Source: a virus. Taken from it: 27,026 bases of DNA. Shown here piece by piece: positions 1 through 17,751 of this stretch; the stretch's first letter is position 1; every line of letters begins with the position of its first letter. A model generated the notes under the pieces. It had not been told where the DNA came from and searched no databases. It saw nothing but the letters and a program-made list of their open reading frames with translations. Made by a program: the position numbers and the translations under genes. The stretch is taken from the UHGV virus genome UHGV-0327176; one strand, written 5' to 3'.

Positions 1-1
1 C

Positions 2-100
2 AAGCCAATCCCAAAAGAATCTGACGTAAAAACCTTCAACTACACGGCTCACCTGTGGGATATCCGGTGGCTTAGAGAACGTGCGAGGAAAACAAGGTGA
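2..100 (+). CDS. ninE: NinE-like protein, C-terminal fragment (5' end lies outside the window)
   Basis: Open frame from the window edge to TGA at 98-100, translating to [32 protein letters not shown], which matches my recollection of the lambda NinE C-terminus. The stop overlaps the ninF GTG start. Confidence 0.5.
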
Positions 101-267
101 TTGACCAAAATCGAAGTTACGAACAAGGAAGTGTCGAGCGAGCTTTAACGTGCGCTAACTGCGGTCAGAAGCTGCATGTGCTGGAAGTTCACGTGTGTGA
201 GCACTGCTGCGCAGAACTGATGAGCGATCCGAATAGCTCGATGCACGAGGAAGAAGACGATGGCTAA
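97..267 (+). CDS. ninF: NinF-like small protein with a 4-Cys motif (GTG start)
   Basis: Not in the ORF track (under 60 aa). Hand translation gives [56 protein letters not shown] then TAA. It sits between ninE and ninG as in lambda and overlaps the ninG ATG. Confidence 0.6.
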
Positions 268-871
268 ACCAGCGCGAAGACGATGTAAAAACGATGAATG
301 TCGGGAATGGTTTCACCCTGCATTCGCCAATCAGTGGTGGTGCTCTCCAGAGTGTGGAACCAAGATAGCTCTCGAACGACGAAGCAAAGAACGCGAAAAA
401 GCGGAAAAGGCAGCAGAGAAGAAACGACGACGAGAGGAGCAGAAACAGAAAGATAAACTTAAGATTCGAAAACTCGCCTTAAAGCCCCGAAGTTACTGGA
501 TTAAACAAGCCCAACAAGCCGTAAACGCCTTCATCAGAGAAAGAGACCGCGACTTACCATGTATCTCGTGCGGAACGCTCACGTCTGCTCAGTGGGATGC
601 CGGGCATTACCGGACAACTGCTGCGGCACCTCAACTCCGATTTGATGAACGCAATATTCACAAGCAATGCGTGGTGTGCAACCAGCACAAAAGCGGAAAT
701 CTCGTTCCGTATCGCGTCGAACTGATTAGCCGCATCGGGCAGGAAGCAGTAGACGAAATCGAATCAAACCATAACCGCCATCGCTGGACTATCGAAGAGT
801 GCAAGGCGATCAAGGCAGAGTACCAACAGAAACTCAAAGACCTGCGAAATAGCAGAAGTGAGGCCGCATGA
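260..871 (+). CDS. ninG: NinG (Rap) recombination-associated endonuclease
   Basis: 203 aa ORF. The sequence, with two Cys clusters (CKNDEC...CSPEC and CISCG...CVVCN), matches the lambda NinG protein as I remember it. Its stop overlaps the next gene's start (ATGA). Confidence 0.9.
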
Positions 872-1074
872 CGTTCTCAGTAAAAACCATTCCAGACATG
901 CTCGTTGAAGCATACGGAAACCAGACAGAAGTAGCACGCAGACTGAAATGTAGTCGCGGTACGGTCAGAAAATACGTTGATGATAAAGACGGGAAAATGC
1001 ACGCCATAGTCAACGACGTTCTCATGGTTCATCGCGGATGGAGTGAAAGAGATGCGCTATTACGAAAAAATTGA
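868..1074 (+). CDS. ninH: NinH small DNA-binding protein
   Basis: 68 aa [40 protein letters not shown]..., recalled as near-identical to lambda NinH, with a helix-turn-helix-like segment. Confidence 0.85.
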
Positions 1075-1717
1075 TGGCAGCAAATACCGAAATATTTGGG
1101 TAGTTGGCGATCTGCACGGATGCTACACGAACCTGATGAAAAAACTGGAGACGATAGGATTCGACACCAAAAAAGACCTGCTTATCTCGGTTGGCGATTT
1201 GGTCGATCGCGGTACAGAGAACGTTGAATGCCTGGAATTAATCACATTCCCCTGGTTCAGAGCTGTACGTGGAAACCATGAGCAAATGATGATTGATGGC
1301 TTATCAGAGCGTGGAAACGTCAATCACTGGCTGCTTAATGGCGGTGGCTGGTTCTTTAATCTCGACTACGACAAAGAAATTCTGGCTAAAGCTCTTGCCC
1401 ATAAAGCAGATGAACTTCCGTTAATCATCGAACTGGTGAGCAAAGATAAAAAATATGTCATCTGCCACGCCGATTATCCTTGTGACGAATACGAATTTGG
1501 AAAGCCAGTTGATCATCAGCAGGTAATCTGGAACCGCGAACGAATCAGCAACTCACAAGACGGGATCGTGAAAGAAATTAAAGGCGCGGACACGTTCATC
1601 TTTGGTCATACGCCAGCAGTGAAACCACTCAAGTTTGCCAACCAGATGTATATAGATACCGGCGCAGTGTTCTGCGGAAACCTCACATTGATTCAGGTAC
1701 AGGGAGAAGGCGCATGA
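1052..1717 (+). CDS. ninI: NinI Ser/Thr protein phosphatase (lambda PPase type)
   Basis: Metallophosphatase motifs GDLHG, GDLVDRG and GNHE are present. The sequence from [23 protein letters not shown] matches lambda phosphatase (221 aa). I chose the ATG at 1052; the ORF track starts at a GTG at 1043. Confidence 0.9.
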
Positions 1718-2337
1718 GACTCGAAAGCGTAGCTAAATTTCATTCGCCAAAAAGCCCGATGATGAGCGACTCACCACGGGCTACGGCTTCTGACTCTCTT
1801 TCCGGTACTGATGTGATGGCTGCTATGGGGATGGCGCAATCACAAGCCGGATTCGGAATGGCTGCATTCTGTGGTAAGCACGAACTCAGCCAGAACGACA
1901 AACAAAAGGCTATCAACTATCTGATGCAATTTGCACACAAGGTATCGGGGAAATACCGTGGTGTGGCAAAGCTCGAAGGAAATACTAAGGCAAAGGTACT
2001 GCAAGTGCTCGCAACATTCGCTTATGCGGATTATTGCCGTAGTGCCGCGACGCCGGGCGCAAGATGCAGAGATTGCCACGGTACAGGTCGGGCGGTTGAT
2101 ATAGCAAAAACAGAGCAGTGGGGGAGAGTTGTTGAGAAAGAGTGCGGAAGATGTAAAGGCGTCGGTTATTCAAGGATGCCTGCAAGCGCAGCATATCGCG
2201 CTGTGACGATGCTAATCCCAAATCTTACCCAACCCACCTGGTCACGCACTGTTAAGCCGCTGTATGACGCTCTGGTGGTGCAATGCCACAAAGAAGAGTC
2301 AATCGCAGACAACATTTTGAATGCGGTCACACGTTAG
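1714..2337 (+). CDS. Q: Late-gene antiterminator Q
   Basis: 207 aa [34 protein letters not shown]..., recalled as essentially lambda Q, including the zinc-binding CRDCHGTGR...CGRCKG region. Followed by a pR'-like promoter. Confidence 0.95.
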
Positions 2338-2379
2338 CAGCATGATTGCCACGGATGGCAACATATTAACGGCATGATA

Positions 2380-2408
2380 TTGACTTTTTGAATAAAGTTG
2401 GGTAAATT
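2380..2408 (+). promoter_or_regulatory. Late promoter pR' (-35 TTGACT, 17-bp spacer, -10 TAAATT) with adjacent qut region
   Basis: TTGACT at 2380-2385 and TAAATT at 2403-2408, immediately downstream of Q. The flanking sequence agrees with my memory of lambda pR'. Confidence 0.6.
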
Positions 2409-2548
2409 TGATCCAACGATGGGTTAATTCGCTCGTTGTGGTAGTGAGATGAAAAGAGGCGGCTCTTACTACCGATTCCGCCTAGTTGGTCAGTTCGACG
2501 TATCGTCTGGAACTCCAACCATCGCAGGCTGAGAGGTCTGCAAAATGC

Positions 2549-2609
2549 AATCCCGAAACAGTTCGCAGGTAATAGTTAGAGCCTGCACAACGGTTTCGGG
2601 ATTTTTTAT
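2549..2609 (+). terminator. tR'-like intrinsic terminator (end of the short pR' leader / 6S RNA)
   Basis: Inverted repeat aatcccgaaac (2549-2559) and gtttcgggatt (2593-2603) followed by a T-run to about 2607. Position relative to pR' is as in lambda. Confidence 0.5.
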
Positions 2610-2611
2610 TT

Positions 2612-2686
2612 GGGTCAGTCGTATAAAGGTAATTACGGAAGGCTGTTAACCTTCTTATCGTGGTTCGAGTCCACGCTGTCCCGCCA
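2612..2686 (+). tRNA. tRNA, predicted anticodon GTT (Asn)
   Basis: Hand-folded cloverleaf: acceptor gggtcag/ctgtccc (6 of 7 bp), perfect anticodon stem gaagg/ccttc, loop ctgttaa with U33 and anticodon GTT, perfect T-stem cgtgg/ccacg, T-loop ttcgagt, encoded 3' CCA. The D-stem is weak (3 bp). Confidence 0.7.
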
Positions 2687-2691
2687 AACAT

Positions 2692-2767
2692 GCTGGTTTA
2701 GCTCCAATGGTAGAGCAGTCGCCTTGTAAGCGAATGGGTAGCGGTTCAAGTCCGTTAACCAGCACCA
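2692..2767 (+). tRNA. tRNA, predicted anticodon TGT (Thr)
   Basis: Hand-folded cloverleaf: perfect 7-bp acceptor gctggtt/aaccagc, D-stem gctc/gagc, D-loop with GG, anticodon loop cttgtaa (anticodon TGT), T-stem agcgg/ccgtt, T-loop ttcaagt, discriminator A, encoded CCA. Confidence 0.8.
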
Positions 2768-2854
2768 TAACTGAGCCGTAGCCACTGGCTATCCTGGATT
2801 CATCAGTGATAGTTACGCTGCGGCCTTCTACACATGATCTTCGTGAAAGCGGGT

Positions 2855-2889
2855 GGCAGGAGGTCGCGCTAACAACCTCCTGCCGTTTT
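2855..2889 (+). terminator. Candidate intrinsic terminator downstream of the tRNAs
   Basis: Perfect 10-bp stem ggcaggaggt (2855-2864) / acctcctgcc (2875-2884) with a 10-nt loop, followed by gtttt. Confidence 0.4.
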
Positions 2890-3009
2890 GCCCGTGCATA
2901 TCGGTCACGAACAAATCTGATTGCTAAACACAGTAGCCTGGATTTGTTCTATCAGTAATCGACCTTATTCCTAATTAAATAGAGCAAATCCCCTTATTGG
3001 GGCTAAGAC

Positions 3010-3333
3010 ATGAAGATGCCAGAAAAACATGACCTGTTAGCCGCCATTCTCGCGGCAAAGGAACAAGGCATCGGGGCAATCCTTGCGTTTGCAATGGCGT
3101 ACCTTCGCGGCAGATATAATGGCGGTGCGTTTACAAAAACAGTAATCGACGCAACGATGTGCGCCATTATCGCCTGGTTCATTCGTGACCTTCTCGACTT
3201 CGCCGGACTAAGTAGCAATCTCGCTTATATAACGAGCGTGTTCATCGGCTACATCGGTACTGACTCGATTGGTTCGCTTATCAAACGCTTCGCTGCTAAA
3301 AAAGCCGGAGTAGAAGATGGTGGAAATCAATAA
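3010..3333 (+). CDS. S: Holin S (class I, dual-start S107/S105)
   Basis: 107 aa ORF beginning MKMPEKHD (Met1-Lys2-Met3 dual start), with three hydrophobic segments. Recalled as near-identical to lambda S. The upstream sequence ...caaatccccttattgggg... also matches lambda. Confidence 0.95.
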
Positions 3334-3793
3334 TCAACGTAAGGCGTTCCTCGATATGCTGGCGTGGTCAGAGGGAACTGATAACGGACGTCAGAAAACC
3401 AGAAATCATGGTTATGACGTCATTGTAGGAGGAGAGCTATTCACTGATTACTCCGATCACCCTCGCAAACTTGTCGCGCTAAACCCCAAACTCAAATCAA
3501 CAGCCGCCGGACGTTACCAGCTTCTTTCACGTTGGTGGGATGCCTACCGTAAGCAGCTTGGCCTGAAAGACTTCTCCCCCAAAAGCCAGGACGCTGTGGC
3601 ACTGCAACAGATTAAAGAGCGTGGCGCTTTACCAATGATTGATCGCGGTGATATTCGTCAGGCAATTGACCGTTGCAGCAATATCTGGGCTTCACTTCCG
3701 GGCGCTGGTTATGGTCAGTTCGAGCATAAGGCTGACAGCCTGATTGCAAAATTCAAAGAGGCTGGCGGAACGGTCAGAGAGATTGAGGTATGA
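3317..3793 (+). CDS. R: Endolysin R (lytic transglycosylase)
   Basis: 158 aa [42 protein letters not shown]..., recalled as lambda R. It overlaps the end of S as in lambda. Confidence 0.95.
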
Positions 3794-4227
3794 GCAGAGT
3801 AACCGCGATTATCTCCGCTCTGGTTATTTGCATCATCGTCTGCCTGTCATGGGCTGTTAATCATTACCGTGATAACGCCATCGCCTATAAAGAACAGCGC
3901 GATAAAGCCACGTCCATCATCGCTGACATGCAGAAGCGTCAACATGATGTAGCAGAACTCGACGCCAGATACACAAAGGAGCTTGCTGATGCTAACGCGA
4001 CTATCGAAAGTCTTCGTGCTGATGTTTCTGCTGGTCGTAAGCGCCTGCAAGTCGCCGCCACCTGTGCAAAGTCAACGACCGGAGCCAGCAGCATGGGCGA
4101 TGGAGAAAGCCCAGGACTTACAGCAGATGCTGAACTCAATTATTACCGTCTCCGAAGTGGAATCGACAGGATAACCGCGCAGGTTAACTACCTGCAGGAG
4201 TACATCAGGACTCAGTGCCTGAAATAA
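3790..4227 (+). CDS. Rz: Spanin inner-membrane subunit Rz (i-spanin)
   Basis: 145 aa ORF with an N-terminal transmembrane segment ([17 protein letters not shown]) and a coiled-coil periplasmic region. Lambda-Rz-like N-terminus, directly downstream of R. Confidence 0.85.
3983..4174 (+). CDS. Rz1: Spanin outer-membrane lipoprotein Rz1 (o-spanin), embedded in Rz in the +1 frame
   Basis: 63 aa ORF wholly inside Rz in another frame, with a signal peptide and lipobox-like LVVSAC followed by a proline-rich segment ([12 protein letters not shown]). This is the classic embedded Rz/Rz1 arrangement. Confidence 0.7.
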
Positions 4228-4259
4228 TTTTTTTGCAAATCACAAAGTCCATTTAATGA

Positions 4260-4284
4260 GCCTCGCGAAAAGCGGGGCTTTTTT
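4260..4284 (+). terminator. Intrinsic terminator after the lysis cassette
   Basis: Stem gcctcgc / gcggggc (7 bp including one G-U pair), loop gaaaa, then TTTTTT at 4279-4284. Confidence 0.55.
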
Positions 4285-4435
4285 ATGTCCTCAGTAAACC
4301 GCGCATTCTCGTGCGCATATCAACCAAGAGCTTTTCGGGATATGAGACAGAGACAGGACGGTGGCTTACATCGTGCCGCTCTTGGGCTGTCCATGTCTGC
4401 GAGAACTGGCTCATATCACCAAAAAGGTAAATACG

Positions 4436-5164
4436 ATGTCCAATATCATCCCGATTGATTTCGAAGGCCATCCCATGCGTTTTTCTGACGATGGCTGGTT
4501 TGACGCGACTGCGGCAGCTGACAAGTTCAACAAGGAGCCGGCTCAGTGGCTTAGGCTTCCTGAGACTGTCCGTTACATCGAGGCGTTAAAGAGTAGATAT
4601 GGGAATATCACATATGTAAAAACCAGCCGCGCTCGCAAAGACCGTGGCGGCGGAACATGGCTTCACCCAAAACTGGCGGTCAGATTTGCTCGATGGCTTT
4701 CTGTAGATTTTGAGATCTGGTGTGATGAGCAAATTGACGCAATCATTCAGGGTTCCGTTCATCATATCGACGATGAAAGAATAAAGGCTATTTTCCTTCT
4801 GGATAAATCTCAGCCATGGGAAAAGAGGTTTAGCGATCCGTTTTATTCTGCGATGTTCAAAATGTCAGGGCTGCCCCGTCATCGACCAGGTCGTCGCCCC
4901 GCACTATTTGGGATGATCAGTGCCAAGTGGGTATATGGCCAGGTATTACCACCAGAAGTATATGCAGAGGTTAAAAGACGGCTGGCTGCGGGAGACAAAA
5001 TCCATCAGCACCTTAAACCTGACGCGCTGACATTGGTTGAGCGACAGATCATTGCCGTTACCAGCATTGCCAATGGGTGCTCTGATTATCGTGATTTCGA
5101 AGCGCGTTGCATGTCGGCATTCCCGGTGAAAGGGCAGATGAAATTGCTCTATGCGGCGGCCTGA
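4436..5164 (+). CDS. KilA-N domain protein with a C-terminal domain I recall as P63C-like (accessory gene)
   Basis: The N-terminal region MSNIIPIDFEGHPMRFSDDGWFDATAAADKFNKEPAQWLRLPE...HPKLAVRFARWLSVDFEIWCDEQIDAI resembles KilA-N (APSES-type DNA-binding) domains. Start chosen at the ATG at 4436 with AAAGG 8 nt upstream; the ORF track extends to a GTG at 4361. Confidence 0.65.
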   Translation: MSNIIPIDFEGHPMRFSDDGWFDATAAADKFNKEPAQWLRLPETVRYIEALKSRYGNITYVKTSRARKDRGGGTWLHPKLAVRFARWLSVDFEIWCDEQIDAIIQGSVHHIDDERIKAIFLLDKSQPWEKRFSDPFYSAMFKMSGLPRHRPGRRPALFGMISAKWVYGQVLPPEVYAEVKRRLAAGDKIHQHLKPDALTLVERQIIAVTSIANGCSDYRDFEARCMSAFPVKGQMKLLYAAA

Positions 5165-5166
5165 TC

Positions 5167-5424
5167 ATGAGCACCCGAATAATAGAATGCGCCTCCAGAG
5201 CGGGGCGCGACTTCTCAGAGTTCATGAAAGGCGAGAAGGGCATGATGGAAGCATTGGCCTCGGTGGATGAGTTTGGCGAGCAGCTGCGCCTCAACGGCTG
5301 TGTCAATCATCACTTTGTTAGCTACATGATGCGGAACTCGATCATGCAGGCATTCATGGACATGGCAAAAGCCGAGAGGAAAGAAGAGCGCCGGCGTAAG
5401 CGAGCGGAAGCAAAAGCGAAGTAG
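5167..5424 (+). CDS. Hypothetical small protein with a basic C-terminal tail, coupled to the KilA-N gene
   Basis: ATG at 5167 lies 2 nt after the KilA-N stop (TGATCATG). 85 aa ending in the lysine/arginine-rich KAERKEERRRKRAEAKAK. No homolog recalled. Confidence 0.45.
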   Translation: MSTRIIECASRAGRDFSEFMKGEKGMMEALASVDEFGEQLRLNGCVNHHFVSYMMRNSIMQAFMDMAKAERKEERRRKRAEAKAK

Positions 5425-5778
5425 CCATTACAAAGCCCATCTACTGGTGGGCTTGATAATGAAACCGTGATTTACATCCCTCACAATCCAGGTATGTAAA
5501 AGCTGGATCATGCGAGAACGGATTTAACTAAATCTGTGCGCCACCAGTTAACGGCAGTACCACGAAACAACCCAAGCCAGTAAGTGGGGAAATAACACTG
5601 GCAGCCACTGAAAGATGAACCTCCAGCCTTATGGCAAAAAAGATTCTTTGTGGTGGCGGACTGATGGAAAGACATCGGTTATTGCAGAGGCCATTCAATG
5701 AGTGGTCTCGACAATGGCTTATACCCTACACGGGATAACTTAACTGATATCCCTTTTAACGGATAAACGGAGCCAACA

Positions 5779-6276
5779 ATGGCAAAGCTCGCAGACAAAC
5801 AAGAGCTGTTTGCCCATCCGGATGATGTGTATGTCGGAGAGTGTGTGATTTATACCGGCTACATAAATAAGCGAGGGTATGGGCAGAAGCACATTTCACG
5901 AAAGCCGCACTACGCACATCGAATCGCATACTGCGAAGCTAACGGAATTTCGCTAGATAGCATCAAGGACCTGGTTGTTAGGCATAAATGCGATAATCCA
6001 TCATGCGTGAATCCTGACCATCTGATTATAGGTACTGTCGCTGACAATAATCGGGACAGGTCAAGGCGAGGCAGAAACTCATACCCTGACCGTTCAGGTG
6101 AAAAGAACGGAATGGCGAAATTAAAAGAGTGCGATGTCATCTGCATTCGCCGCGAGTATGTGCGCGGGAGTGTAGGTAATGGGCTTAGGTCTTTAGCAAA
6201 GAGATATGGCGTATCCACTACCATGATTGCTGACATCGTTAATCATAGAAATTGGAGCAATGTTTCGGAGGTGTGA
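5779..6276 (+). CDS. HNH endonuclease (terminase-associated)
   Basis: 165 aa ORF with the HNH-type motif HKCDNPSCVNPDHLIIGTVADN and a C-terminal helix-turn-helix-like segment (LAKRYGVSTTMIADIVNHRNW). GGAG ribosome-binding site upstream. Lies immediately before the small terminase. Confidence 0.8.
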   Translation: MAKLADKQELFAHPDDVYVGECVIYTGYINKRGYGQKHISRKPHYAHRIAYCEANGISLDSIKDLVVRHKCDNPSCVNPDHLIIGTVADNNRDRSRRGRNSYPDRSGEKNGMAKLKECDVICIRREYVRGSVGNGLRSLAKRYGVSTTMIADIVNHRNWSNVSEV

Positions 6277-6277
6277 T

Positions 6278-6847
6278 TTGAAACAGCTCACACCTAAGCA
6301 GGAACTGTTCTGCAGGGAATATTTAAAAGATTTAAACGCCACACAGGCAGCTATCAGGGCGGGTTACAGCGAGAAGACTGCCAATGAACAAGCATCACGC
6401 CTGTTAGCAAATGTTAATGTCCAAAACTTTGTCGCCGAACTTAAGGCAGCCCGCATTGAGCAGACTGGTATCGATGCCGCCTATGTTCTGCGACGCTTGG
6501 TTGAGATAGACCAAATGGACGTGCTCGACATCATGACTGATGACATGAGTCTGAAGCCTGTCTCTGAGTGGCCTGCATCATGGCGGCGCTACCTCAGTGG
6601 ATTTGATCTTGCGGAAATGTTCGAAGGACGCGGCGATGACCGAGAGATGGTTGGCATCCTGAAGAAGATTAAATGGCCTGATAAGGTTAAAAACCTTGAG
6701 TTGCTTGGGCGCCATGTTTCTGTTCAGGCGTTTAAAGACAACGTCAAAAATGAAGTGACTGGTGCTGACGGAGGACCAGTCAGAACAGAAATTACCAACT
6801 TAACGCCGGAGCAGGCTGCAGAAGCGTATAAAAAAATGATGGGCTAA
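6278..6847 (+). CDS. Terminase small subunit (P27-family type)
   Basis: The N-terminal motif [34 protein letters not shown] is typical of this small-terminase family as I recall it. I propose the TTG at 6278 (GGAGG 6 nt upstream, 1 nt after the HNH stop); alternative in-frame starts are the ATG at 6260 or 6227. Confidence 0.75.
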
Positions 6848-6849
6848 GT

Positions 6850-8472
6850 ATGCCGTTACCATTTCCCTTCGATTTTAAACATCCTGATTACCAGATGGTT
6901 TTTGAATGGCGGATGGAACGCTTACAGCGCATTCGCCAGAACCCCGAAATGCTGCCAGCGCTTAAGCAGTTTTACCGAACCAATCCGGCTCAGTTCATCA
7001 TCGACTGGGGCATGACAACGGACCCACGTAACATCGATTATGGCCTGCCGGTGACCATTCCGTTTTTACTCTTCCCTAAGCAGGAGGAGTGGATCCACTG
7101 GATTATGGAACGCTGGGGTAATCGGGAGAATGGTATTACCGAAAAATCCCGTGAAATGGGGCTCAGTTGGACCGCGATCGGACTGGCCTGCTCGCTTTGT
7201 CTCTTCAACAAAGAAATGGTTATCGGTTTCGGCTCCCGTAAAGAGGAATACGTCGACAGCACTGGTGACCCGAAAGCATTGTTCTGGAAGGCGCGCAAGT
7301 TCGTGGAAACACTACCTGTAGAGTTTCGCGGTTCGTGGAGCGAGAAGAAGCACGCGCCATATATGCGTGTTGAGTTTCCTGAAACTGGTGCCGTTATCAA
7401 AGGCGAGGCTGGCGATAATATTGGTCGTGGTGACCGTACCACGCTTTATCTGGTTGATGAGGCTGCATTCCTTCAGCGTCCTCTGCTGATTGATGCGGCG
7501 TTGTCACAAACCACCCGCTGCCGTATCGACCTGAGTTCGGTTAACGGCATGGCGAACCCGTTCGCGCAGAAGCGTCACGGCGGGAAGATACCGGTATTCA
7601 CATTCCACTGGCGAAATGACCCGCGCAAGGATGAAGAGTGGTATCGCAGGGAATGCGAGAAAATCGATAATCCGGTGGTGGTGGCACAGGAACTTGATCT
7701 GAACTACAGCGCATCAGCGGAAGGCGTCCTGATTCCATCCGAATGGGTACAGGCTGCCGTTGATGCGCATATCAAACTGGGGATCCAGCCAACAGGCAAA
7801 CGACTTGGCGCGATGGATGTCGCCGACGAAGGCAGGGACAAAAATTCCTTTTCCACTCGTCATGGCTTCCTCCTGGAGAATGTGCGGGAATGGTCCGGTG
7901 TGGGCAGCGACATTTATCAGTCCGTCGAGAAGGTCTTCGGCTTTTGCGAACAGGACGATCTTGAAGAGTTTCGCTTTGACGAGGACGGGCTGGGCGCTGG
8001 CGTTCGCGGCGATGCACGCGCTATCAACGAACTGCGTAACGCTGCGCGCCGACAGTCAATACTCGCCACACCGTTTCGTGGTAGCGGCGCGGTATTTGAT
8101 CCGGACGATGAAGCGGTGCGCGGGGACAACGGACAGGCCGCACGCCTGAACAAGGACTTCTTCGCCAACGCCAAGGCCCAAAGCTGGTGGTGGCTACGCA
8201 ACCTTTTCCAGAACACCTATCGCGCCGTGGTTGAGGGCATGGCCTACAACCCGGACGAAATCATCTCAATCAGCAGTAGCATGGCGCTCAAAGATAAACT
8301 CATCATCGAGCTTTCGCAGCCGACCTATTCCATTAATGGTGTGGGAAAAATCGTTATTGATAAACAGCCTGATGGAACCCGGTCGCCAAACCTTGCCGAC
8401 TCGGTGATGATCAGCTACGCGCCAATGAATTCAGCCCTGAACATCTGGGAGCTGCTAGGGAGACAGGCCTGA
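6850..8472 (+). CDS. Terminase large subunit
   Basis: 540 aa ORF directly after the small subunit and before the portal. Has an N-terminal ATPase-like region and an acidic DEAAF segment consistent with a terminase nuclease/ATPase. Assignment rests on size, order and general resemblance. Confidence 0.8.
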
Positions 8473-9938
8473 TGGCACGAAACAAACAAGCCACGCGGCG
8501 AACGGCACAGGCCACCGCTGATGGATATGAGAACTTTGTCGCCCGCGTGGGGATGCAGACGCCTAACCAGCACTCAGCATCGACCTACCGGGCTAACTTC
8601 ACCAGCCGCAACCGCATGCTGGTGGAATGGTCCTATCGTTCGTCCTGGATCATCGGCGAAGCGGTCGACGCTATCCCGGATGATATGACCCGCAAAGGCA
8701 TTCGCATCACTTCGGAAATTGATGCAAAAGATCGCGGCATTCTCGAATCACAACTTGATGAGTTGCAGATCTGGGATGCGCTGAACGACGTGCTGAAATG
8801 GTCTCGCCTCTACGGCGGCGCGGTCGGCTTCATCATGATCGAGGGGCAGGCACCAATGACCCCGCTGCGGCTCGAAACCATTGGAGAAGGCAAGTTTAAG
8901 GGTATTCTCCCGCTCGACCGCTGGATGATTAACCCGGTGCTGACCCGCCGCATTAAAGAGATGGGGCCGGACCTGGGTAAACCTGAGTTTTACGACGTGG
9001 TGACCACTGCAACGGGCATCCCGGCCTGGCGAATCCATCACAGCCGCCTGATTCGCTTCGATGGCGTCACGCTGCCATTCCAGCAGAAGATGACCGAGAA
9101 CGAATGGGGAATGTCGGTTGTAGAGCGAATCTGGGATCGGCTTACTGCGTTCGACAGCGCCACTGTCGGCGCGGCTCAGCTGGTCTACAAAGCGCATCTG
9201 CGCACCTACAGCGTGGAGAAGCTGCGAGAGCTTATCGCACTTGGTGGCCCCGCGTTCGAGGCGTTGCTGAAGAACATCGACCTGATCCGCCAGTTCCAGA
9301 GCAATGAAGGCATGACGCTCATGGACTCGCGGGATAAGTTCGAAACCCACCAGTACAGCTTTAGTGGTCTGGATGACATTCTTTCGCAGTTTGCTGAGCA
9401 GATCAGCGGTGCCGTTGGTATCCCGCTGGTACGCCTGTTCGGTCAATCCCCGAAAGGCTTCTCTACTGGTGATGCAGACCTCGCCAACTATTACGACCGG
9501 GTGAGCTCATTGCAGGAACGCCGCTTACGGATGCCGATGCGTCGGATACTGGACATCATGCATCGTTCGGAGCTTGGCAAGCCGCTGCCGGACGATTTCA
9601 CGTTTGAGTTTAACCCGCTATGGCAAATGTCTGACGTTGACCGCTCAACGGTGGCCGTAAACACTACCAACGCAATCAGTACGGCGCTGGGTGATGGTCT
9701 GATGACACTGAAAGCCGCTATGACTGATTTGCGCGAAAATTCTGACGTAACCGGCATCGGGGCGTCCATTACCGACGAGGACATAGAGAATGCCGAAGAC
9801 GAAGCGCCGCCAGGCATCGGCGAACTTGGCGACAAACCGCCAGAGTCGCCAGGCGGAGATCCGATATCGAACGAGCCTACGGCAGATAGCGCGGGCGGTC
9901 GGGGATATCGTAAATGGTCGCTACGATGGTTCAAATGA
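8472..9938 (+). CDS. Portal protein
   Basis: 488 aa ORF following the large terminase (ATGA overlap), with an acidic low-complexity C-terminal tail. Called by position and size. Confidence 0.75.
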   Translation: MARNKQATRRTAQATADGYENFVARVGMQTPNQHSASTYRANFTSRNRMLVEWSYRSSWIIGEAVDAIPDDMTRKGIRITSEIDAKDRGILESQLDELQIWDALNDVLKWSRLYGGAVGFIMIEGQAPMTPLRLETIGEGKFKGILPLDRWMINPVLTRRIKEMGPDLGKPEFYDVVTTATGIPAWRIHHSRLIRFDGVTLPFQQKMTENEWGMSVVERIWDRLTAFDSATVGAAQLVYKAHLRTYSVEKLRELIALGGPAFEALLKNIDLIRQFQSNEGMTLMDSRDKFETHQYSFSGLDDILSQFAEQISGAVGIPLVRLFGQSPKGFSTGDADLANYYDRVSSLQERRLRMPMRRILDIMHRSELGKPLPDDFTFEFNPLWQMSDVDRSTVAVNTTNAISTALGDGLMTLKAAMTDLRENSDVTGIGASITDEDIENAEDEAPPGIGELGDKPPESPGGDPISNEPTADSAGGRGYRKWSLRWFK

Positions 9939-10563
9939 CAGTGTCACCGAAATAATGGATGCGCTGGAGCGCTACAGCGAAATCATCACCCCCTGGGCGA
10001 CTAAGGTTGCTGAGAGCTTCACCGCCGACATTGCGCGCCAGAATGAAAAGCAGTGGCGTCAGCACAGTCGGAACATCAGCGCAGAACTACGCAACATGGT
10101 CGACCGCGCCCCGGTAGGCCAGGTGATGAAATCCATCGTCGCCGAGCAAATTAAGTACATCAAATCTCTGCCTCTTGAGGCCGCCGATCGGGTGTATGAC
10201 ATTCAGAACAAGGCCATCGAGGCTGTAGTAACTGGTGGCCGCGCTGAGCCATTCGCGAAAGAGATAGCTGCTTCCGGTGACGTGTCACGCTCACGAGCGA
10301 ACCTTATCGCCCGGACTGAGCTTGGGCGCGCAACCGGTGCACTGGATCAGGCGCGTGCGCTGTCAATCGGCTCGAATGGTTATATCTGGCGTACAGCCGA
10401 AGATGGCGACGTCCGGCATTCTCATCGAGAGATGGAAGGGAAGTTTGTCGAATGGGGCCGACCTCCAACGCTTGACGGCATGACCGGTCACGCTGGCGAG
10501 CTCCCGAACTGCCGCTGTTACAAAGAAATCGTCTTCCCCAACCCTCATTCTTATCTCGCCTGA
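9790..10563 (+). CDS. Head morphogenesis protein (Mu F-like minor head protein)
   Basis: The C-terminal region NGYIWRTAEDGDVRHSHREMEGKFVEWGRPPTLDGMTGHAGELPNCRCY matches the Mu F-type motif as I recall it. The ORF overlaps the portal 3' end by 149 nt in another frame; an alternative start is the ATG at 9955. Confidence 0.7.
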   Translation: MPKTKRRQASANLATNRQSRQAEIRYRTSLRQIARAVGDIVNGRYDGSNDSVTEIMDALERYSEIITPWATKVAESFTADIARQNEKQWRQHSRNISAELRNMVDRAPVGQVMKSIVAEQIKYIKSLPLEAADRVYDIQNKAIEAVVTGGRAEPFAKEIAASGDVSRSRANLIARTELGRATGALDQARALSIGSNGYIWRTAEDGDVRHSHREMEGKFVEWGRPPTLDGMTGHAGELPNCRCYKEIVFPNPHSYLA

Positions 10564-10577
10564 ATCGCAGGTAAACC

Positions 10578-11810
10578 ATGAAATATTTTTTCAATACCCG
10601 GCTGGGGGAAACCCGTTATCAGCTGGCTGACGGCTCGCTACTGTGCAAAGACGTGCCGATAGGTCGAACGGGTAAGCAGCTTTACGGCGCTGCCGATCTG
10701 CCAAACCTCAAACCCGACAAGCTCGGCGAGATAGTCGTAACGCGCTCTCCTGATCAGGTGTTCCATCCGGCCACGCTCGCCTCATTCGAAGGGATGAGCA
10801 TCACGATCCTGCATCCTGAAGATGAAAACGGGAATGTGCGGCTGGTCAACCCCGAGAACTGGAAAGAGCTTGCGGTCGGGCATCTTCAGAACGTTCGGCG
10901 CGGGACTGGTGATCAGTCTGATTTGATGCTGGCTGACCTTATCGTCAAAGACGAAAGCGCCATTCAGCTGATCGAAGATGGTCTGCGCGAAGTGTCGTGC
11001 GGCTATGACGCTGAGTACGAGCAGACCGAACCCGGAAAAGCCGAGCAGGTCGATATTACCGGAAACCATGTGGCTCTTGTCCCTAAAGGCAGAGCCGGAA
11101 ATCGTTGTGCAATTGGAGACAGAGACACAATGGCAAATCAAAAGAAAAGCTGGTGGACCCGCATGCGCACGGCCATCAAAACGGGTGATGCTGACACCAT
11201 GAACGAACTGCTGGACTCTGCGCCAGCGGCGGTAACGGGCGATGAAGGGGATCTGCCGAGCGGCGTTAACCTCAACATTAATCTTTCACCGCAACAACCA
11301 TTGCCGGACAAAAAGCCGGAAATGGGCGGAGAGCCAACCGGCGACGGCGAGGACGATATCAAAACCTTGCTCAAAGCCCTGCTGGCTAAGCTGGAAGGTA
11401 CTGCAACGGGCGATAACGACGATAAGCCTGACGGCAAAGATAACAAAGACCCTACCGGCGACGGTGAGGACGACGAAGAGGAAACCACGATTACCGGTGA
11501 CGCTGCTTATCGTGCCGAAGTTATCGTTCCGGGTATCGATCTGAGCCGTAAGGTGAAACCGACCGCGTTCAAACGTGATGTGCTGTCCGCCGCTGACAAA
11601 ACACTGGTTCGCCAGGTTGTCGGTGATGCAGATATCCGCAAATTGCCCAAGCAATCGGTCGATATGGCGTTTAACGCCGTGTCTGAGATTGCCAAAGGGC
11701 GAAACACCCGCAGCACCACGGGCGATGCACAACGTCCAAATATGGGCATGACCAGCATCGCTTCCCTGAACAAACAAAACGCCGACTTCTGGTCTAACCG
11801 CAAAGGATAA
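10578..11810 (+). CDS. Putative prohead protease/scaffolding protein with an acidic low-complexity core
   Basis: 410 aa ORF between the head morphogenesis and capsid genes. The central region is rich in D/E/G/T with a repeated PTGDGEDD unit. I recall similar proteins as DUF2213-type; not verified. Confidence 0.55.
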   Translation: MKYFFNTRLGETRYQLADGSLLCKDVPIGRTGKQLYGAADLPNLKPDKLGEIVVTRSPDQVFHPATLASFEGMSITILHPEDENGNVRLVNPENWKELAVGHLQNVRRGTGDQSDLMLADLIVKDESAIQLIEDGLREVSCGYDAEYEQTEPGKAEQVDITGNHVALVPKGRAGNRCAIGDRDTMANQKKSWWTRMRTAIKTGDADTMNELLDSAPAAVTGDEGDLPSGVNLNINLSPQQPLPDKKPEMGGEPTGDGEDDIKTLLKALLAKLEGTATGDNDDKPDGKDNKDPTGDGEDDEEETTITGDAAYRAEVIVPGIDLSRKVKPTAFKRDVLSAADKTLVRQVVGDADIRKLPKQSVDMAFNAVSEIAKGRNTRSTTGDAQRPNMGMTSIASLNKQNADFWSNRKG

Positions 11811-11814
11811 TCCA

Positions 11815-12318
11815 ATGACTGCATATTTGTACCGGATGCCTGTTGGCATTGCCGGGGCTATCTCTCGCCCGCAGGACTTAACCGTCGAACCGGTGATCCT
11901 TAAATCCGCTAACGCCTTCGCTGCCTATGGTCTGGCTGGCAAATATGACGCTGACGGCTTTTTCGTGCCGCTGGCGGACGGTGACACCGCCGACAAGGTG
12001 AAGGGGATCTACGTTCGTCCGTATCCGACCACATCGCAGCCAGACATGGTTCGCCAGGTGGGGACGGATAAGAACTTCCCGGGTGACGCCATGAAGCGTG
12101 GCTACATGACCGTTAACCTCGGATCTGGCTTCGATGCCAGCACCATCAAAAAAGGCGATCCTGTCTACGTGGTCGTTTCGCTCGATTCAACCATTGACGT
12201 GCCGCTGGGCGGCTTCATGTCCACGTCCGTCAGTGGCAAAAACGTGGCGCTGACCAACGCCGAATTCACAGGGGCCGGTGACGCTAACGGCAATGCAGAA
12301 ATCTCCTGGAAGATTTAA
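11815..12318 (+). CDS. Hypothetical head protein (possible decoration or scaffold-associated)
   Basis: 167 aa ORF immediately upstream of the putative major capsid gene. Called by position only. Confidence 0.45.
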   Translation: MTAYLYRMPVGIAGAISRPQDLTVEPVILKSANAFAAYGLAGKYDADGFFVPLADGDTADKVKGIYVRPYPTTSQPDMVRQVGTDKNFPGDAMKRGYMTVNLGSGFDASTIKKGDPVYVVVSLDSTIDVPLGGFMSTSVSGKNVALTNAEFTGAGDANGNAEISWKI

Positions 12319-12329
12319 GGAACAGACGA

Positions 12330-13271
12330 ATGATTACTTTTGATCAGGCAACCGTTGATAGCTCTGGTGCCTTTCTCATCGGGGAGCTGGAGCGACTCGA
12401 CCAGACGCTGAACCTGCCGCTGGTGGGTTACACCTGGACCCGCGATATTCAGCTGCGTGAAGACGTTTCTATCGCAGATGACATTTCCAGCTGGACTAAC
12501 ACCAGTTTTGGCGCTGCGGGTACTGGCGCAAATCCGAACGGTAAAAACTGGGTAGGCAAAGACTCCACTGCTATTGCTGGCGTGAGTGTTGATATCGGCA
12601 AAGACGGCAATCCGCTGAACCTCTGGGGCATGGAGCTGGGCTGGACCGTTGTGGAGCTGGCAGCAGCTCAGCAGGTAGGTCGCCCGATTGATACCCAGAA
12701 GTACGACGGGATGCAGCTCAAATGGCAGATGGACAACGACGAGCAGGTTTACATTGGCGATGATGCGCTCGGCCTGAAAGGGCTGGCAAACCTTGTCGGT
12801 GTGACGCTGAACAATGCGCCGAAGACCTGGGCGAACTCCACCAACGACGAGATCCTCGATAGCGTGAACAGCATTCTGTCGAATGCCTGGGCAGCATCCG
12901 GTTATTCCGTCGTGCCTTCTGATCTGCGCATTCCGCCAGAGCAGTATTCACTGCTGGCGAGCCGTAAGGTTTCCGAAGCGGGTAACCAGTCACTGCTGAC
13001 CTATCTGGCCGTGAACACTATCGCTTTCCACCAGAACGGCGTTCCGCTGGAAATCAAAGCGGTTAAATGGCTGAAAGGGCGCGGGGTTGGCGGTAAAGAC
13101 CGTATGGTCGCCTACACCAACGACAAGAAATATGTGCGCTATCCGCTGGTGCCGTTGCAGAGCGTTCCTATCCAGTATCGCGGTCTGTACCAGATTGCGA
13201 CCTACTACGGCAAGCTCGGTGCGGTTGAGCCAGTGTACAAAGAAACCCTGTCCTACGTGGACGGTATCTGA
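12330..13271 (+). CDS. Major capsid protein (putative)
   Basis: 313 aa ORF at the expected position and size, followed by a GC-rich stem-loop, consistent with a highly expressed capsid gene. Family not confirmed. Confidence 0.65.
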   Translation: MITFDQATVDSSGAFLIGELERLDQTLNLPLVGYTWTRDIQLREDVSIADDISSWTNTSFGAAGTGANPNGKNWVGKDSTAIAGVSVDIGKDGNPLNLWGMELGWTVVELAAAQQVGRPIDTQKYDGMQLKWQMDNDEQVYIGDDALGLKGLANLVGVTLNNAPKTWANSTNDEILDSVNSILSNAWAASGYSVVPSDLRIPPEQYSLLASRKVSEAGNQSLLTYLAVNTIAFHQNGVPLEIKAVKWLKGRGVGGKDRMVAYTNDKKYVRYPLVPLQSVPIQYRGLYQIATYYGKLGAVEPVYKETLSYVDGI

Positions 13272-13282
13272 TAACCAGAACG

Positions 13283-13298
13283 GCCCCGAAAGGGGCCA
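13283..13298 (+). other. Stem-loop after the capsid gene (ggcccc-gaaa-ggggcc), no T-run
   Basis: Perfect 6-bp GC stem with a GAAA tetraloop 12 nt after the capsid stop. Probably an RNA-stabilising or processing hairpin rather than a terminator. Confidence 0.35.
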
Positions 13299-13312
13299 GA
13301 AGGAAACTGAAA

Positions 13313-13681
13313 ATGGCGAAAGAAAAGCTGGTTACCATCCATGTTCACACTCCGTTTACGCTGACGCTCGGCGATCAGTCAAAACAGGAGTTTGGCCGGG
13401 GGCGGCATAACGTACCGGAAGAGGTCGCGTCTCACTGGTTCACCCAGGCGCACTCTGAGCTTTCCGAAAGCGTGATTAGCGACACCGATGATCTGCAACC
13501 CATTATCGACAGCCTGCAAGCGCAGATTGCCGACAAAGATAAGCAGATTGTCGATCTGAAAGAAGCGCTGCTCAAGCTGCAAGAGCAGAACGACAGCCTG
13601 CAAGCGCAGATTGCTGCCGCCCAGACTGGCGGTAATGGGGCGAAAGATGCCAAAGAATCAAAGCCTGCCAACAGTAAGTGA
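13313..13681 (+). CDS. Hypothetical virion protein with a C-terminal coiled coil
   Basis: 122 aa ORF with an AGGAAA ribosome-binding site. The C-terminus has heptad-like repeats (DSLQAQIA occurs twice), encoded by a 23-bp perfect direct repeat. Confidence 0.5.
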
Positions 13682-14054
13682 TTTTCGCCGCGACTTCCCG
13701 CAGTTTGCTGACCCTGCCAAATATCCCGAAGCGCAAATCCAGTTTCGTCTGAATCTGGCCGACGAGCTGCTGAGCGAAAACGTCACCGGCAAAAAGTTGT
13801 TTCCGTATTTTGCCGAGTTGTTTGTGGCGCACTACATGACACTCTGGGCGGCAGATAGCCGGGCAATGCTCGTCGGCGGCCCAGGTGGCTCAACCAATGG
13901 TGTTCAGTCCTCCAAGTCCGTTGACAAGGTAAGCGTCAGCTATGACACCAGCGCGACGCTAAACCCTGACGCAGGCTTCTGGAATAACACCCGATATGGC
14001 GCTGAATTTTATCAGCTGATCACGATGTTCGGTGCGGGCGGTCGCCAGCTATGA
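13647..14054 (+). CDS. Head-tail connector-type protein (recalled as DUF4054-like)
   Basis: The N-terminus (after the chosen start) [32 protein letters not shown] resembles the conserved start of DUF4054 phage proteins as I remember them. Start chosen at the ATG at 13647; the ORF track begins at 13611. Confidence 0.5.
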
Positions 14055-14605
14055 GTTTCAAAAGTGGTGTAACAACGAGGGTTGATAACGCTCAGGCCAT
14101 TCTGGATGTGCTCCGGTCGCTAACCAAAAAGGATGTGCTGGTGGGCATCCCGGAAGAAGACAGCGAGCGTGAGGATGTTCCGTTTGGTAATGCCGGGATC
14201 GGTTACGTCAACGAATACGGCTCACCAGCGCAAAACATACCCCCACGCCCGCACCTGATCCCCGGCGTTAAATCCGTAGAGGAACAGACGGTGCCGCAGC
14301 TCAAAGCAGCGGCGCAGGCTGCGCTTGATGGAAATGCGGCGGGTGCGGAAAGAGCGCTTAACCGCGCAGGAACGCTGGCCGCGAATGGCGTCAGGCGTTA
14401 CATGACCATTACCGGCTTTACACCGCTTGCTGATAGCACCGTTGAAGCACGCGCACGCCGTGGGCGCAAAGGGGCAAAAGAGGAACTTGCGCGGCGCGCT
14501 GCTGGTGAGTCTCCTGGAACCGATCTGGTGAAACCGCTAATCGACACCGGGCAATATCGCAGAGCTATTACCCATATTGTGAGGGATAAAGATGCCGACT
14601 CTTGA
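14051..14605 (+). CDS. Hypothetical virion morphogenesis / head-tail joining protein
   Basis: 184 aa ORF with start overlapping the upstream stop (ATGA). Called by position in the head-tail joining block. Confidence 0.5.
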
Positions 14606-14981
14606 TGTAACAGACGTGCTTTTTGACCCCGATTTTTGCGACTTCAACCTGTGGGTAACGCGTCGCGCGCAAACGGTGGACGATGACGGGATCGGCAGCG
14701 ACAGCGAAGTTAAAACGCAGTTTGCCGGGGTTGTTACTGTTGACCGCTCCCTGGAAAACCGCCGCATGCAGGCCGGGCAGGTTATCAGCGGCGCGATTCT
14801 CATCGTGACAACTGAGCGGCTGACGCAGGGGCAGACTGGCCGTGATGCCGATATCGTGACGTATCAGAACCGTGATTATCGCGTGACATTCGTCGACCCG
14901 TATACGGCTTACGGTGCTGGCTTCGTCCAGGCTCATTGTGAATTACTGCCGTTTGATGGGGGAACTCCCATTGAGCAATAA
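14592..14981 (+). CDS. Hypothetical head-tail adaptor protein
   Basis: 129 aa ORF overlapping both neighbours. Called by position only. Confidence 0.45.
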   Translation: MPTLDVTDVLFDPDFCDFNLWVTRRAQTVDDDGIGSDSEVKTQFAGVVTVDRSLENRRMQAGQVISGAILIVTTERLTQGQTGRDADIVTYQNRDYRVTFVDPYTAYGAGFVQAHCELLPFDGGTPIEQ

Positions 14982-15519
14982 CACCAGCACAGAGCGCGGC
15001 TGGCTGACACCCACCAGCGGCGATCCGGCTTATGACGAAGCGCTCGACAGGCTGCTAAGCCAGTGGATGCGCAATGTTTCCGGCTTGCCGTCTGGAATGG
15101 TTCGTCCGCGCTGGCAGAAAAATCAGCCGCCACTGCCACCCGTTGAAACGAACTGGTGCGCGTTTGGCGTTACCGGGTTGCTCATTGATAACAACCCTGC
15201 ATTCACCGGGCAGACTGAAGAGGGCGCTCAGCTCTGGAGGCATGAAACGTTCGAGTGCATGGCGTCGTTCTATGGTCCGGCTGGTATGTCTTATGCGTCC
15301 CGTTTTCGCGATGGTATATCTGTCCCGCAAAACAATGCTGAGCTGAACGCGCTTGGTTTATCCCTTGGCGACTATACCGCTCTGACCCCTTTCCCCGAAC
15401 TTATCAACCAGCAATGGGTTCGCCGTTACGACATGACGGTGCGACTGCGCCGGAAGGTTGTCCGCGAGTATGGCATCAAATCGCTGGTGGAAGTGCCAGT
15501 CACCTTTTTTGGAGAATAA
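14956..15519 (+). CDS. Hypothetical neck/tail completion protein
   Basis: 188 aa from the ATG at 14956; the ORF track starts at 14914. Sits directly upstream of the sheath gene. Confidence 0.45.
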   Translation: MGELPLSNNTSTERGWLTPTSGDPAYDEALDRLLSQWMRNVSGLPSGMVRPRWQKNQPPLPPVETNWCAFGVTGLLIDNNPAFTGQTEEGAQLWRHETFECMASFYGPAGMSYASRFRDGISVPQNNAELNALGLSLGDYTALTPFPELINQQWVRRYDMTVRLRRKVVREYGIKSLVEVPVTFFGE

Positions 15520-15522
15520 ACT

Positions 15523-16683: not shown

Positions 16684-16693
16684 GGAGCGATAA

Positions 16694-17134
16694 ATGGCAA
16701 CTTATTCTTTTCTCGATGTAACCGCGTCGCTCACCGGGCCGACCGGCGTTATCGATCTTGGTCAGGGTTCTGCGAACTCTGAGGAAGGTATCACCCAGAC
16801 CATGGGCGGCAACAAAAACACCATGACCATCGGTGCCGATGGCGAGGTGATGCACAGCCTGCACGCCGATAAGTCAGGCACCATTACGGTGACGCTACTC
16901 AAAACCTCCCCGGTGAATAAAAAGCTGTCTCTGGCGTATAACGCGCAAAGCCAGTCCTCTGCCACCTGGGGCAATAACGTGATCGTCATTCGCAACACGG
17001 CATCGGGTGATATTTCTACTGCGCGTTCGTGTGCATTCCAGAAACAGCCTGATTTCAATAACGCTAAAGAGGGCGGAACCGTCGCCTGGGTATTCGACTG
17101 CGGCAAGATTGACCAGCTTCTCGGGGAGTTTTAA
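16694..17134 (+). CDS. Tail tube protein (recalled as DUF3277-type)
   Basis: 146 aa ORF immediately after the sheath gene. Size and position fit a contractile-tail tube. Confidence 0.6.
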   Translation: MATYSFLDVTASLTGPTGVIDLGQGSANSEEGITQTMGGNKNTMTIGADGEVMHSLHADKSGTITVTLLKTSPVNKKLSLAYNAQSQSSATWGNNVIVIRNTASGDISTARSCAFQKQPDFNNAKEGGTVAWVFDCGKIDQLLGEF

Positions 17135-17137
17135 CGC

Positions 17138-17563: not shown

Positions 17564-17751
17564 CCTTCAATAGCCTGCCGGGCGGTGAAGATTTTATTCT
17601 TCGTCCGGCGCTTGCCTTCCATATTGACCAGAAAGACCTTAACAGCGGTGCGGTAGATCTTTGCCGCATCGCGCTTCTCAATGACTACCTCGACATGCGC
17701 GAGGATAACGACGCCCGGGTAGATAAATGGAGAGCGGCCAATGAGCGGTAA
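17138..17751 (+). CDS. Tail assembly chaperone, predicted -1 frameshift fusion (GT-like product)
   Basis: Slippery heptamer A_AAT_TTT at 17509-17515 in the zero frame (codons gga|aat|ttt, followed by a TTTTTT run). The -1 frame is open for 78 codons (17515-17748) and stops at TAA 17749-17751, overlapping the tape measure ATG at 17741. Hand-translated with no internal stops. Confidence 0.55.

Follow-up and report, generated by a model that had tools for sequence, protein, structure and literature searches.

A lambda-type Q late control unit upstream of a contractile-tail virion module in what is very probably an SEN34-like lambdoid phage

Introduction

What kind of phage carries the late regulator and lysis genes of lambda upstream of the genes for a contractile tail, and where were its two halves joined? 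The question is raised by a 27,026-nucleotide (nt) stretch of UHGV virus genome UHGV-0327176, which was analyzed at its full length and is referred to here as the window. An original prediction, made from the sequence alone, held that lambda Q and its promoter pR′ drive a foreign myovirus-type late operon, with recombination junctions near 2610-2770 and at about 4230. Our analysis leads to a different account. The window very probably covers the right half of a temperate phage or prophage that is lambdoid, mosaic, and a member of the SEN34-like group, whose members are lambda-like with contractile tails. Salmonella phage SEN34 was shown by electron microscopy to have a contractile tail and has been described as a lambda-like phage of myovirus morphology and as a lambda-cluster prototype (“temperate 26”) (PMC5261728). 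The arrangement in the window is one more member of this described kind of lambdoid phage, and the combination is not unusual.

Layout of the Window and Relatives of Its Left Block

The window divides into two blocks. The left block (1-5787) runs from the truncated ninE through ninF, ninG, ninH, and ninI to a lambda-type Q and the late control region pR′/qut/tR′, followed by genes for tRNA-Asn and tRNA-Thr, the lysis genes S, R, and Rz/Rz1, a KilA-N/P63C gene, and a small open reading frame (ORF). The right block (5788 to the window end) is a virion module of the Terminase_2 / DUF1073-portal / DUF3383-sheath type, with an HNH_3 gene lying within the 5′ end of the small terminase gene (terS). 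All of the major genes, Q through the tail fibre, are carried on the plus strand. The guanine-plus-cytosine (GC) content is 48.9% in the left block and 53.1% in the right block, and it reaches 54-55% in the head genes and tail core.

Judged by alignment, the left block as a whole is closest to the HK97-like phage HK446. A megablast search of 1-4284 against the phage collection returned 618 records, the best of which was HK446 (99% coverage, 97.6%); lambda covered 88% at 97.2-97.3%. HK446, a siphovirus of the Hendrixvirinae, is collinear with the window over 125-5787 at 96.7%, a stretch that takes in Q, pR′, the tRNA genes, S, R, Rz and the terminator after it, the KilA-N gene, and a conserved segment at the boundary between the blocks, and HK97, a siphovirus of the same subfamily, matches 2839-5787 at 95.4%. 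Past the boundary, HK446 and HK97 differ from the window in having a gp74-type HNH gene, cos, and HK97-type siphovirus head and tail genes. The likeness to lambda extends from ninE to tR′ (pR′, qut, and tR′ all being conserved) and over the S leader, S, R, and early Rz, whereas the remainder of Rz, the bor region, and cos differ and, among the virion genes, only the C terminus of the tail-fibre assembly gene tfa is related.

The Late Control Region and the tRNA Cassette

Positions 1-2609 correspond to lambda 42173-44781 in a gapless blastn alignment at 97.7%, which bears out the lambda identity that had been predicted for this stretch. The window opens inside ninE, making ninF its first complete gene. 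The further expectation that NinE through Rz would read as near-lambda proteins held for NinF, NinG, NinH, NinI, Q, S, and R (97-100%) but not for Rz (57%), and only the last 32 codons of ninE are present. The Q protein is 100% identical to the Q proteins of HK446 and of the Escherichia coli prophages LR-71-1 and EC291. Directly downstream of Q lies pR′, with a −35 hexamer TTGACT (2380-2385), a 17-nt spacing, and a −10 hexamer TAAATT (2403-2408), followed by the pause element AACGAT (2415-2420). Both hexamers and the pause element align as the same in lambda, and two substitutions in the pR′ spacer are common to HK97, HK446, LR-71-1, and EC291, all of which encode the same Q. The terminator tR′ consists of a stem (2552-2600) and a T-tract and has a single loop substitution relative to lambda. 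The claim that even the noncoding sequence upstream of S is lambda-like was thereby confirmed, with the pR′-qut-tR′ stretch and the S leader both matching. By its Q family, its pR′/qut, and its tR′, the region reads as a lambda-type Q late antitermination unit.

Homology to lambda stops precisely where the tR′ T-tract ends, at 2609. The 159 nt that follow are a two-tRNA cassette that takes the place of 163 base pairs (bp) of lambda sequence after tR′. One of the two proposed recombination junctions had been put at 2610-2770, and this stretch is instead accounted for by the tRNA genes that ARAGORN and Rfam identify there. The same cassette is present at the equivalent position in HK446, Sf6, SfI, BTP1, and many P22-like phages; 2610-2768 is a known mobile tRNA cassette. 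Because the tRNA pair begins 2-3 nt past the T-tract of tR′, it should be produced solely from late transcripts that read through the terminator. Compensation for the codon usage of the virion module was considered as a role for the pair and was rejected. Of the Thr codons, ACA accounts for 14% in the virion module and 28% in the left block, AAC/AAT usage is unremarkable, and codon counts for the virion genes against the left block gave no enrichment for the codons that the cassette would serve.

From the Lysis Genes to the Module Boundary

Beyond the cassette, lambda identity returns. Positions 2769-3908 are 90-100% identical to lambda, which holds for the S leader, for S and R, and for Rz over its first ~120 nt, and blastn gives a match over 2769-4038 at 92.6%. 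In a 60-nt sliding comparison, lambda identity is lost at ~3909, ~120 nt into Rz. Identity to HK97 is 93-100% from ~3909 through 4300 and 97-100% from ~3970; the terminator after Rz (4258-4280) sits in sequence 98-100% identical to HK97. The stretch from 4228 to 5787 is in turn 94-99% identical to HK97, HK446, and the E. coli prophage S51. These comparisons overturn two parts of the original prediction, namely the junction at about 4230, which lies inside continuous HK97-type sequence and beyond the point where lambda identity ends, and the change to a different lineage after the Rz terminator. As read from these alignments, 4228-5787 is still lambdoid, and the lineage does not change at the post-Rz terminator.

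Where, then, does the lineage change? Homology to HK97 and HK446 runs up to 5787, which is eight bases beyond the ATG at 5779, and ends there. In the alignment this places the module boundary at 5787/5788, where the first packaging gene has its start codon. The breakpoints, like the sequence identities, the gene content, and the occurrence of these features in relatives, were established directly. A six-way alignment of this region has a mean column identity of 91% over the aligned stretch (5530-5830 plus flanks). Within it, 5537-5787 stands out as a segment in which most columns are invariant among HK97, HK446, and three E. coli prophages, while both flanks diverge. A total of 194 phage records contain the segment, among them those of P22-like podoviruses and of HK97-like siphoviruses. 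Because lambdoid phages of all three tail types carry it just upstream of their packaging genes, we infer that homologous exchange within these ~250 bp is the most likely origin of the join.

The first gene across the boundary also departs from what had been proposed. An HNH gene and a P27-type small terminase were predicted as a pair. The HNH gene is present and belongs to the HNH_3/His-Me type, but it is not a constant partner of the terminase: LR-71-1 and EC291 have it, but it is missing from three relatives that share the terS/terL module, namely S51, SEN34, and E. coli phage vB_EcoM-611R5 (hereafter 611R5). The P27 assignment did not hold, as the sole Pfam match of the small terminase is Terminase_2 (PF03592). 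In S51, the terS start is formed by what are, in the window, the first ~12 codons of the HNH ORF. For its ribosome-binding site, start codon, and first ~12 codons, the HNH_3 ORF uses those that originally belonged to terS; they are identical to those of S51, and terS has a second, different 5′ end at 6278 with a TTG start and GGAGG 6 nt upstream. Since S51 lacks HNH_3 and its terS start corresponds to the start of the HNH ORF, HNH_3 is best described, on this comparison, as an optional insertion of the homing-endonuclease type at the terS start.

The conservation of 5537-5787 invites a further reading, in which the segment goes beyond a DUF2560/orf25-type gene remnant and is a cis element of the late transcript as well as a preferred crossover site for virion modules, and HNH_3 is an active homing endonuclease that promotes the exchanges. 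The cis-element part draws on the predicted RNA fold of the segment, which has a modest z-score of −3.4. The coding potential of the segment consists of two small frames that are broken or nonsynonymously changed in some relatives in the alignment, and some P22-like records annotate the segment as part of a DUF2560/orf25 gene. We regard this combined reading as unlikely.

Relatives of the Virion Module

The right block answers to a contractile-tail phage, as had been predicted. The sheath was confirmed by the Pfam family DUF3383 and by sequence matches to the XM1 and Pam3 sheath structures in the PDB, the tube by KPP10_Orf10, and the Mu F-like head protein by Phage_Mu_F. The predicted P2/Mu-like baseplate fits in part: the Baseplate_J wedge and the spike with its GpV Apex motif agree with it, whereas the hub, plug, and Dit-like proteins fall into the families E217_GP41, Pam3_gp18, and Dit_like. 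Sheath and tube homology, together with the electron microscopy of SEN34, suggests that the phage would have a contractile tail. The predicted absence of lambda structural genes was borne out as well. When 4228 to the window end was compared with lambda 1-23000 by blastn and tblastx, the only match was the C terminus of the tail-fibre assembly gene (26811-27017). On this evidence the virion genes nu1 and A ... J, by which Lambdavirus is recognized, are lacking, and the element falls outside that genus.

The closest virion module among isolated phages is that of Citrobacter phage Omnitron, at 93.7% over 6794-18787 and 86-93% over most of 19625-25950. Omnitron differs in its S (81%) and Rz (75%), in a distinct terS 5′ end, and in having no close HNH_3 homologue at that site. 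SEN34 shares the gene order of the window, from nin, Q, holin, endolysin, and Rz through terS, terL, and portal to sheath, tube, baseplate, and fibre. Its virion genes are 84.8% identical in nucleotide sequence over 6809-17261, its TerL is 95.6% identical in amino acid sequence, and blastn matches remain collinear at 65-85% over 6809-26050. It differs in Q (26% identity), holin (29%), and Rz (42%), is just 65-75% identical in the tape measure and baseplate regions, and lacks the tRNA cassette, the KilA-N gene, and HNH_3. Phage 611R5 is 86-88% identical from the head and neck genes into the beginning of the sheath gene (6452-15789), beyond which the identity is 65-78%. The sheath, cement/minor capsid, plug, and hub proteins match families named after the contractile tails of XM1, Pam3, and E217, for which structures have been solved; these are distant, family-level relatives only, on different hosts. 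To our knowledge, none of the three is lambdoid in its genome organization.

The most complete counterparts are prophages. Four complete E. coli genomes (LR-71-1, S1, 873.10, and SY3626) each cover 82-90% of window 1-25000 at 94-95.5%. The LR-71-1 prophage, integrated between sbcB and dacD, carries int, cIII, cI, cro, cII, O, P, nin genes, an identical Q, S, R, Rz, HNH_3, and the same virion module. Among the sbcB-dacD prophages of LR-71-1, S1, 873.10, SY3626, and EC291 (the last compared around the junction only), Q is identical, S and R are 99%, Rz 97%, HNH_3 99%, and TerL 97% identical to those of the window, and the virion module has 91-95% nucleotide identity. LR-71-1 differs in having a Rha gene in place of the KilA-N gene, no tRNA cassette (homology is broken at 2438-2838), and a nin region with NinX and another HNH gene.

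These relatives bear on whether the module is foreign to the control unit ahead of it. In S51, SEN34, and 611R5, the Q allele upstream of the same virion module is a different one, and a Q-family gene likewise precedes the module in Omnitron and in E. coli prophages. Relatives of TerL were found at 57 loci in species-representative Enterobacterales genomes; at 20 of the 32 loci having 8 kilobases (kb) upstream of TerL, a Q homologue lies upstream on the same strand, and most of these 20 also have lysis genes. By these comparisons the virion module is interchangeable, is found behind several Q alleles, and is not foreign to lambdoid phages. SEN34 is assigned to the genus Brunovirus. For classification, a genus threshold of 70% whole-genome nucleotide similarity applies, as quoted in PMC12945033. 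Over the left 5.8 kb, SEN34 gave no nucleotide match, and a related E. coli phage stands at 31% against SEN34, figures to be read with the window being only part of a genome. Taken together, membership in Brunovirus itself appears unlikely, and membership in the wider SEN34-like cluster is supported.

Late Transcription

Of the proposal that a lambda Q/pR′ unit precedes a foreign myovirus operon, the placement stands: Q, pR′/qut, and tR′ are upstream and on the same strand. The foreignness does not, since the module is at home among lambdoid phages and the left block is closest to HK446. In lambda, read-through of terminators by Q-modified polymerase is an established mechanism, and the role of Q here would be the same. 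Q would bind at pR′/qut and render RNA polymerase terminator-resistant, and a single late transcript would then extend across tR′ and the tRNA genes, continue through the lysis genes and the terminator after Rz, and take in the accessory genes as well as the entire virion operon. We infer in this way that transcription of the virion operon depends on Q. Two plus-strand terminators (4258-4280 and 22583-22602) lie inside the operon, and this, with all major genes on the plus strand, fits a need for processive antitermination.

The operon could instead be driven mainly by a promoter or activator of its own rather than by Q-modified polymerase from pR′. The strong terminator after Rz and the 350-nt gap ahead of the HNH/terS start are what one might expect in that case, but the plus strand of 4228-6278 has no regulator gene and, in a promoter scan, no good sigma-70 promoter; a scan of the virion module found 10 weak sigma-70-like sites against 15.7 expected by chance. 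Q genes of several families are, moreover, consistently upstream of the module. An operon driven mainly by its own promoter or activator is very unlikely.

Origin of the Join

Could the two blocks belong to different elements? They might be a defective lambdoid remnant (1-5787) beside or nested with a myovirus prophage, or an assembly chimera misjoined at the 250-bp repeat. The repeat 5537-5787 occurs in many prophages and could mislead an assembler, and E. coli genomes have a median of 2 and a maximum of 11 places that match the window. Against this, the adjacency of Rz, an accessory gene, the optional HNH gene, and terS recurs in the closed genomes LR-71-1, S51, and EC291 and in the isolated phages SEN34 and 611R5. 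No integrase, attachment site, or repressor separates the blocks, and within the window the virion module brings neither lysis genes nor regulatory genes with it. We consider two elements or a misjoin highly improbable.

Several observations do weigh against a single SEN34-like lambdoid element with Q-dependent late genes. The window holds only the right half of the element, with the integrase, immunity, and replication genes outside it. The exact combination over 4230-6900 is contiguous in no complete E. coli genome of the collection, a result that also counts toward a misjoin, and no isolated phage of the collection has a lambda-type Q together with this virion module. There may also be internal promoters within the virion module. 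An exact 48-mer spanning the 5787 junction had no match in the species-representative genomes, a result that is uninformative with a collection of one genome per species.

The least tenable account has lambda itself as one parent and an unrelated myovirus as the other in a recent, unique recombination with crossovers at 2610-2770 and ~4230, through which lambda Q captured a foreign operon: the very high lambda identity over 1-2609 and 2769-3908 and the lack of lambda virion genes downstream speak for it, but breakpoint mapping already contradicts it, HK446 covers more of the left block than lambda does, Rz through the small ORF and on to 5787 is HK97-type lambdoid sequence that includes the terminator and KilA-N gene, 2610-2768 is a widespread tRNA cassette, and in many Enterobacterales the virion module is regularly accompanied by Q-lysis cassettes, so that we give this account almost no credence.

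Other Features and Side Observations

The features of the window are collected in Table 1. Two genes, R and terL, had no Pfam hit even at E=0.1 and were named through relatives at 95-99%. NCBIfam gave no match for HNH_3, terS, terL, sheath, KilA-N, or R.

Table 1. Annotated features of the 27,026-nt window, in window coordinates
Feature	Positions	Strand	Basis of assignment
ninE 3′ end (cut by window start)	1-100	+	97% to lambda NinE, 100% to HK97 NinE
ninF	97-267	+	Pfam NinF; 98% to lambda
ninG (Rap junction endonuclease)	260-871	+	Pfam NinG E=4e-92; 99.5% to lambda
ninH	868-1074	+	Pfam Phage_NinH; 100% to lambda
ninI (Ser/Thr phosphatase)	1052-1717	+	Pfam Metallophos; 97% to lambda; start set by lambda coordinates 43224-43889
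Q, lambda-type late antiterminator	1714-2337	+	Pfam Antiterm PF03589 E=1e-57; 99.5% to lambda Q
pR′, Q-binding spacer, and AACGAT pause element (qut)	2380-2420	+	Promoter scan; alignment to lambda and relatives
tR′ terminator, end of 6S RNA unit	2552-2609	+	CCCGAAAC...GTTTCGGG stem and T6; alignment with lambda 44502-45191
tRNA-Asn (GTT)	2612-2686	+	ARAGORN; Rfam tRNA 55.3 bits
tRNA-Thr (TGT)	2692-2767	+	ARAGORN; Rfam tRNA 61.5 bits
S holin/antiholin	3010-3333	+	Pfam Phage_holin_3_1; 99% to lambda
R endolysin	3317-3793	+	98% to lambda R, 99% to HK97
Rz (i-spanin), HK97 allele	3790-4227	+	Pfam Phage_lysis; 57% to lambda, 97% to HK97
Rz1 (o-spanin lipoprotein), embedded in Rz in another frame	3989-4174	+	Lipobox in translation
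Intrinsic terminator after Rz	4258-4280	+	Terminator scan; 9-bp stem, T6
KilA-N/P63C accessory gene, HK97 gp73 / HK446 gp58 type (alternative start 4436)	4361-5164	+	Pfam KilA-N, P63C; 99% to HK97, HK446
Small ORF of no assigned function	5167-5424	+	Conserved in HK97, HK446, S51; no Pfam hit
Conserved boundary segment, ending at start codon of first packaging-module gene	5537-5787	+	Six-way alignment
HNH_3 endonuclease gene, inserted in terS 5′ end	5779-6276	+	Pfam HNH_3, zf-His_Me_endon
Small terminase	6278-6847	+	Pfam Terminase_2 PF03592 E=7e-39; start via alignment to S51 terS
Large terminase	6850-8472	+	95-98% to TerL of SEN34, 611R5, Omnitron, LR-71-1
Portal protein	8472-9938	+	Pfam Phage_portal_3 E=2e-105
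Head genes: Mu F-like, DUF2213, cement/minor capsid, major capsid	9790-13271	+	Pfam Phage_Mu_F, DUF2213, XM1_gp53/Phage_cement, Major_capside
Head-completion and neck genes (DUF4054, adaptor, neck terminator)	13313-15519	+	Pfam DUF4054, Phage_tail_terminator_9; LR-71-1 annotation
Tail sheath	15523-16683	+	Pfam DUF3383 E=4e-102; PDB XM1 sheath 7kh1 3e-36, Pam3 sheath 8hdr 2e-28
Tail tube	16694-17134	+	Pfam KPP10_Orf10 E=6e-60
Tail assembly chaperone and overlapping DUF6889 ORF	17138-17750	+	Pfam Phage_TAC_15, DUF6889
Tape measure protein, SLT domain	17741-19753	+	Pfam SLT, PhageMin_Tail
Baseplate core: Dit-like, plug, hub	19753-21729	+	Pfam Dit_like, Pam3_gp18, E217_GP41
DUF4236 gene (putative moron) within tail module	22105-22395	−	Pfam DUF4236; also in LR-71-1
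Membrane-piercing spike	22618-23358	+	Pfam spike N-terminal domain PF18352, GpV Apex motif
Baseplate wedge genes (small wedge protein, Baseplate_J, DUF2612)	23587-25817	+	Pfam Baseplate_J E=1e-15, DUF2612; SEN34 annotation
Tail fibre and tail-fibre assembly protein (latter cut by window end)	25799-27026	+	Pfam Gp53-like_C, Caudo_TAP; tblastx to lambda tfa

Within the tail genes, upstream of that for the tape measure protein, the chaperone ORF (17138-17563) shares 4 nt with the DUF6889 ORF (17560-17750). Tailed phages often have a programmed frameshift at this position. The only reverse-strand gene among the features listed, encoding a DUF4236 protein, looks like a moron, that is, an independently transcribed inserted gene; the stretch around it (21730-22617) has a lower GC content (49%) and terminator-like hairpins at 22099-22081 on the minus strand and 22583-22602 on the plus strand. 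At the right edge, the last 48 nt of the window (26979-27026) match HK97 20831-20784 in inverted orientation, and 611R5 has inverted tail-fibre/tfa copies and a DNA invertase after its tfa (37007-38757). An invertible host-range segment may lie just past the window end.

Three sets of matches concern the hosts in which relatives of the module are found. In the draft genome of Candidatus Arsenophonus triatominarum ATi, >20 contigs have TerL relatives, many with upstream lysis genes, and the prophage type seems to be heavily amplified or fragmented there. A contig of Chryseobacterium sp. 18061 with 53.6% GC encodes a TerL that is 81% identical along with Q and holin homologues, and Elizabethkingia phage EKP1 has 72% nucleotide identity over the baseplate genes. 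The Chryseobacterium and Elizabethkingia matches could reflect mislabelling, contamination, or an unexpectedly wide host distribution.

Implications

The window is a clean textbook case of lambdoid modular mosaicism, and as such it has little import beyond annotation and opens no new question. Its use lies in the annotation of a common class of E. coli prophages, for which it provides corrected breakpoints, a tRNA cassette, and an HNH insertion in terS. For the lambdoid phages as a family, the same lambda-type Q/pR′ unit precedes virion genes of the HK97 siphovirus type in HK446 and of the SEN34 myovirus type in the window and in several E. coli prophages.

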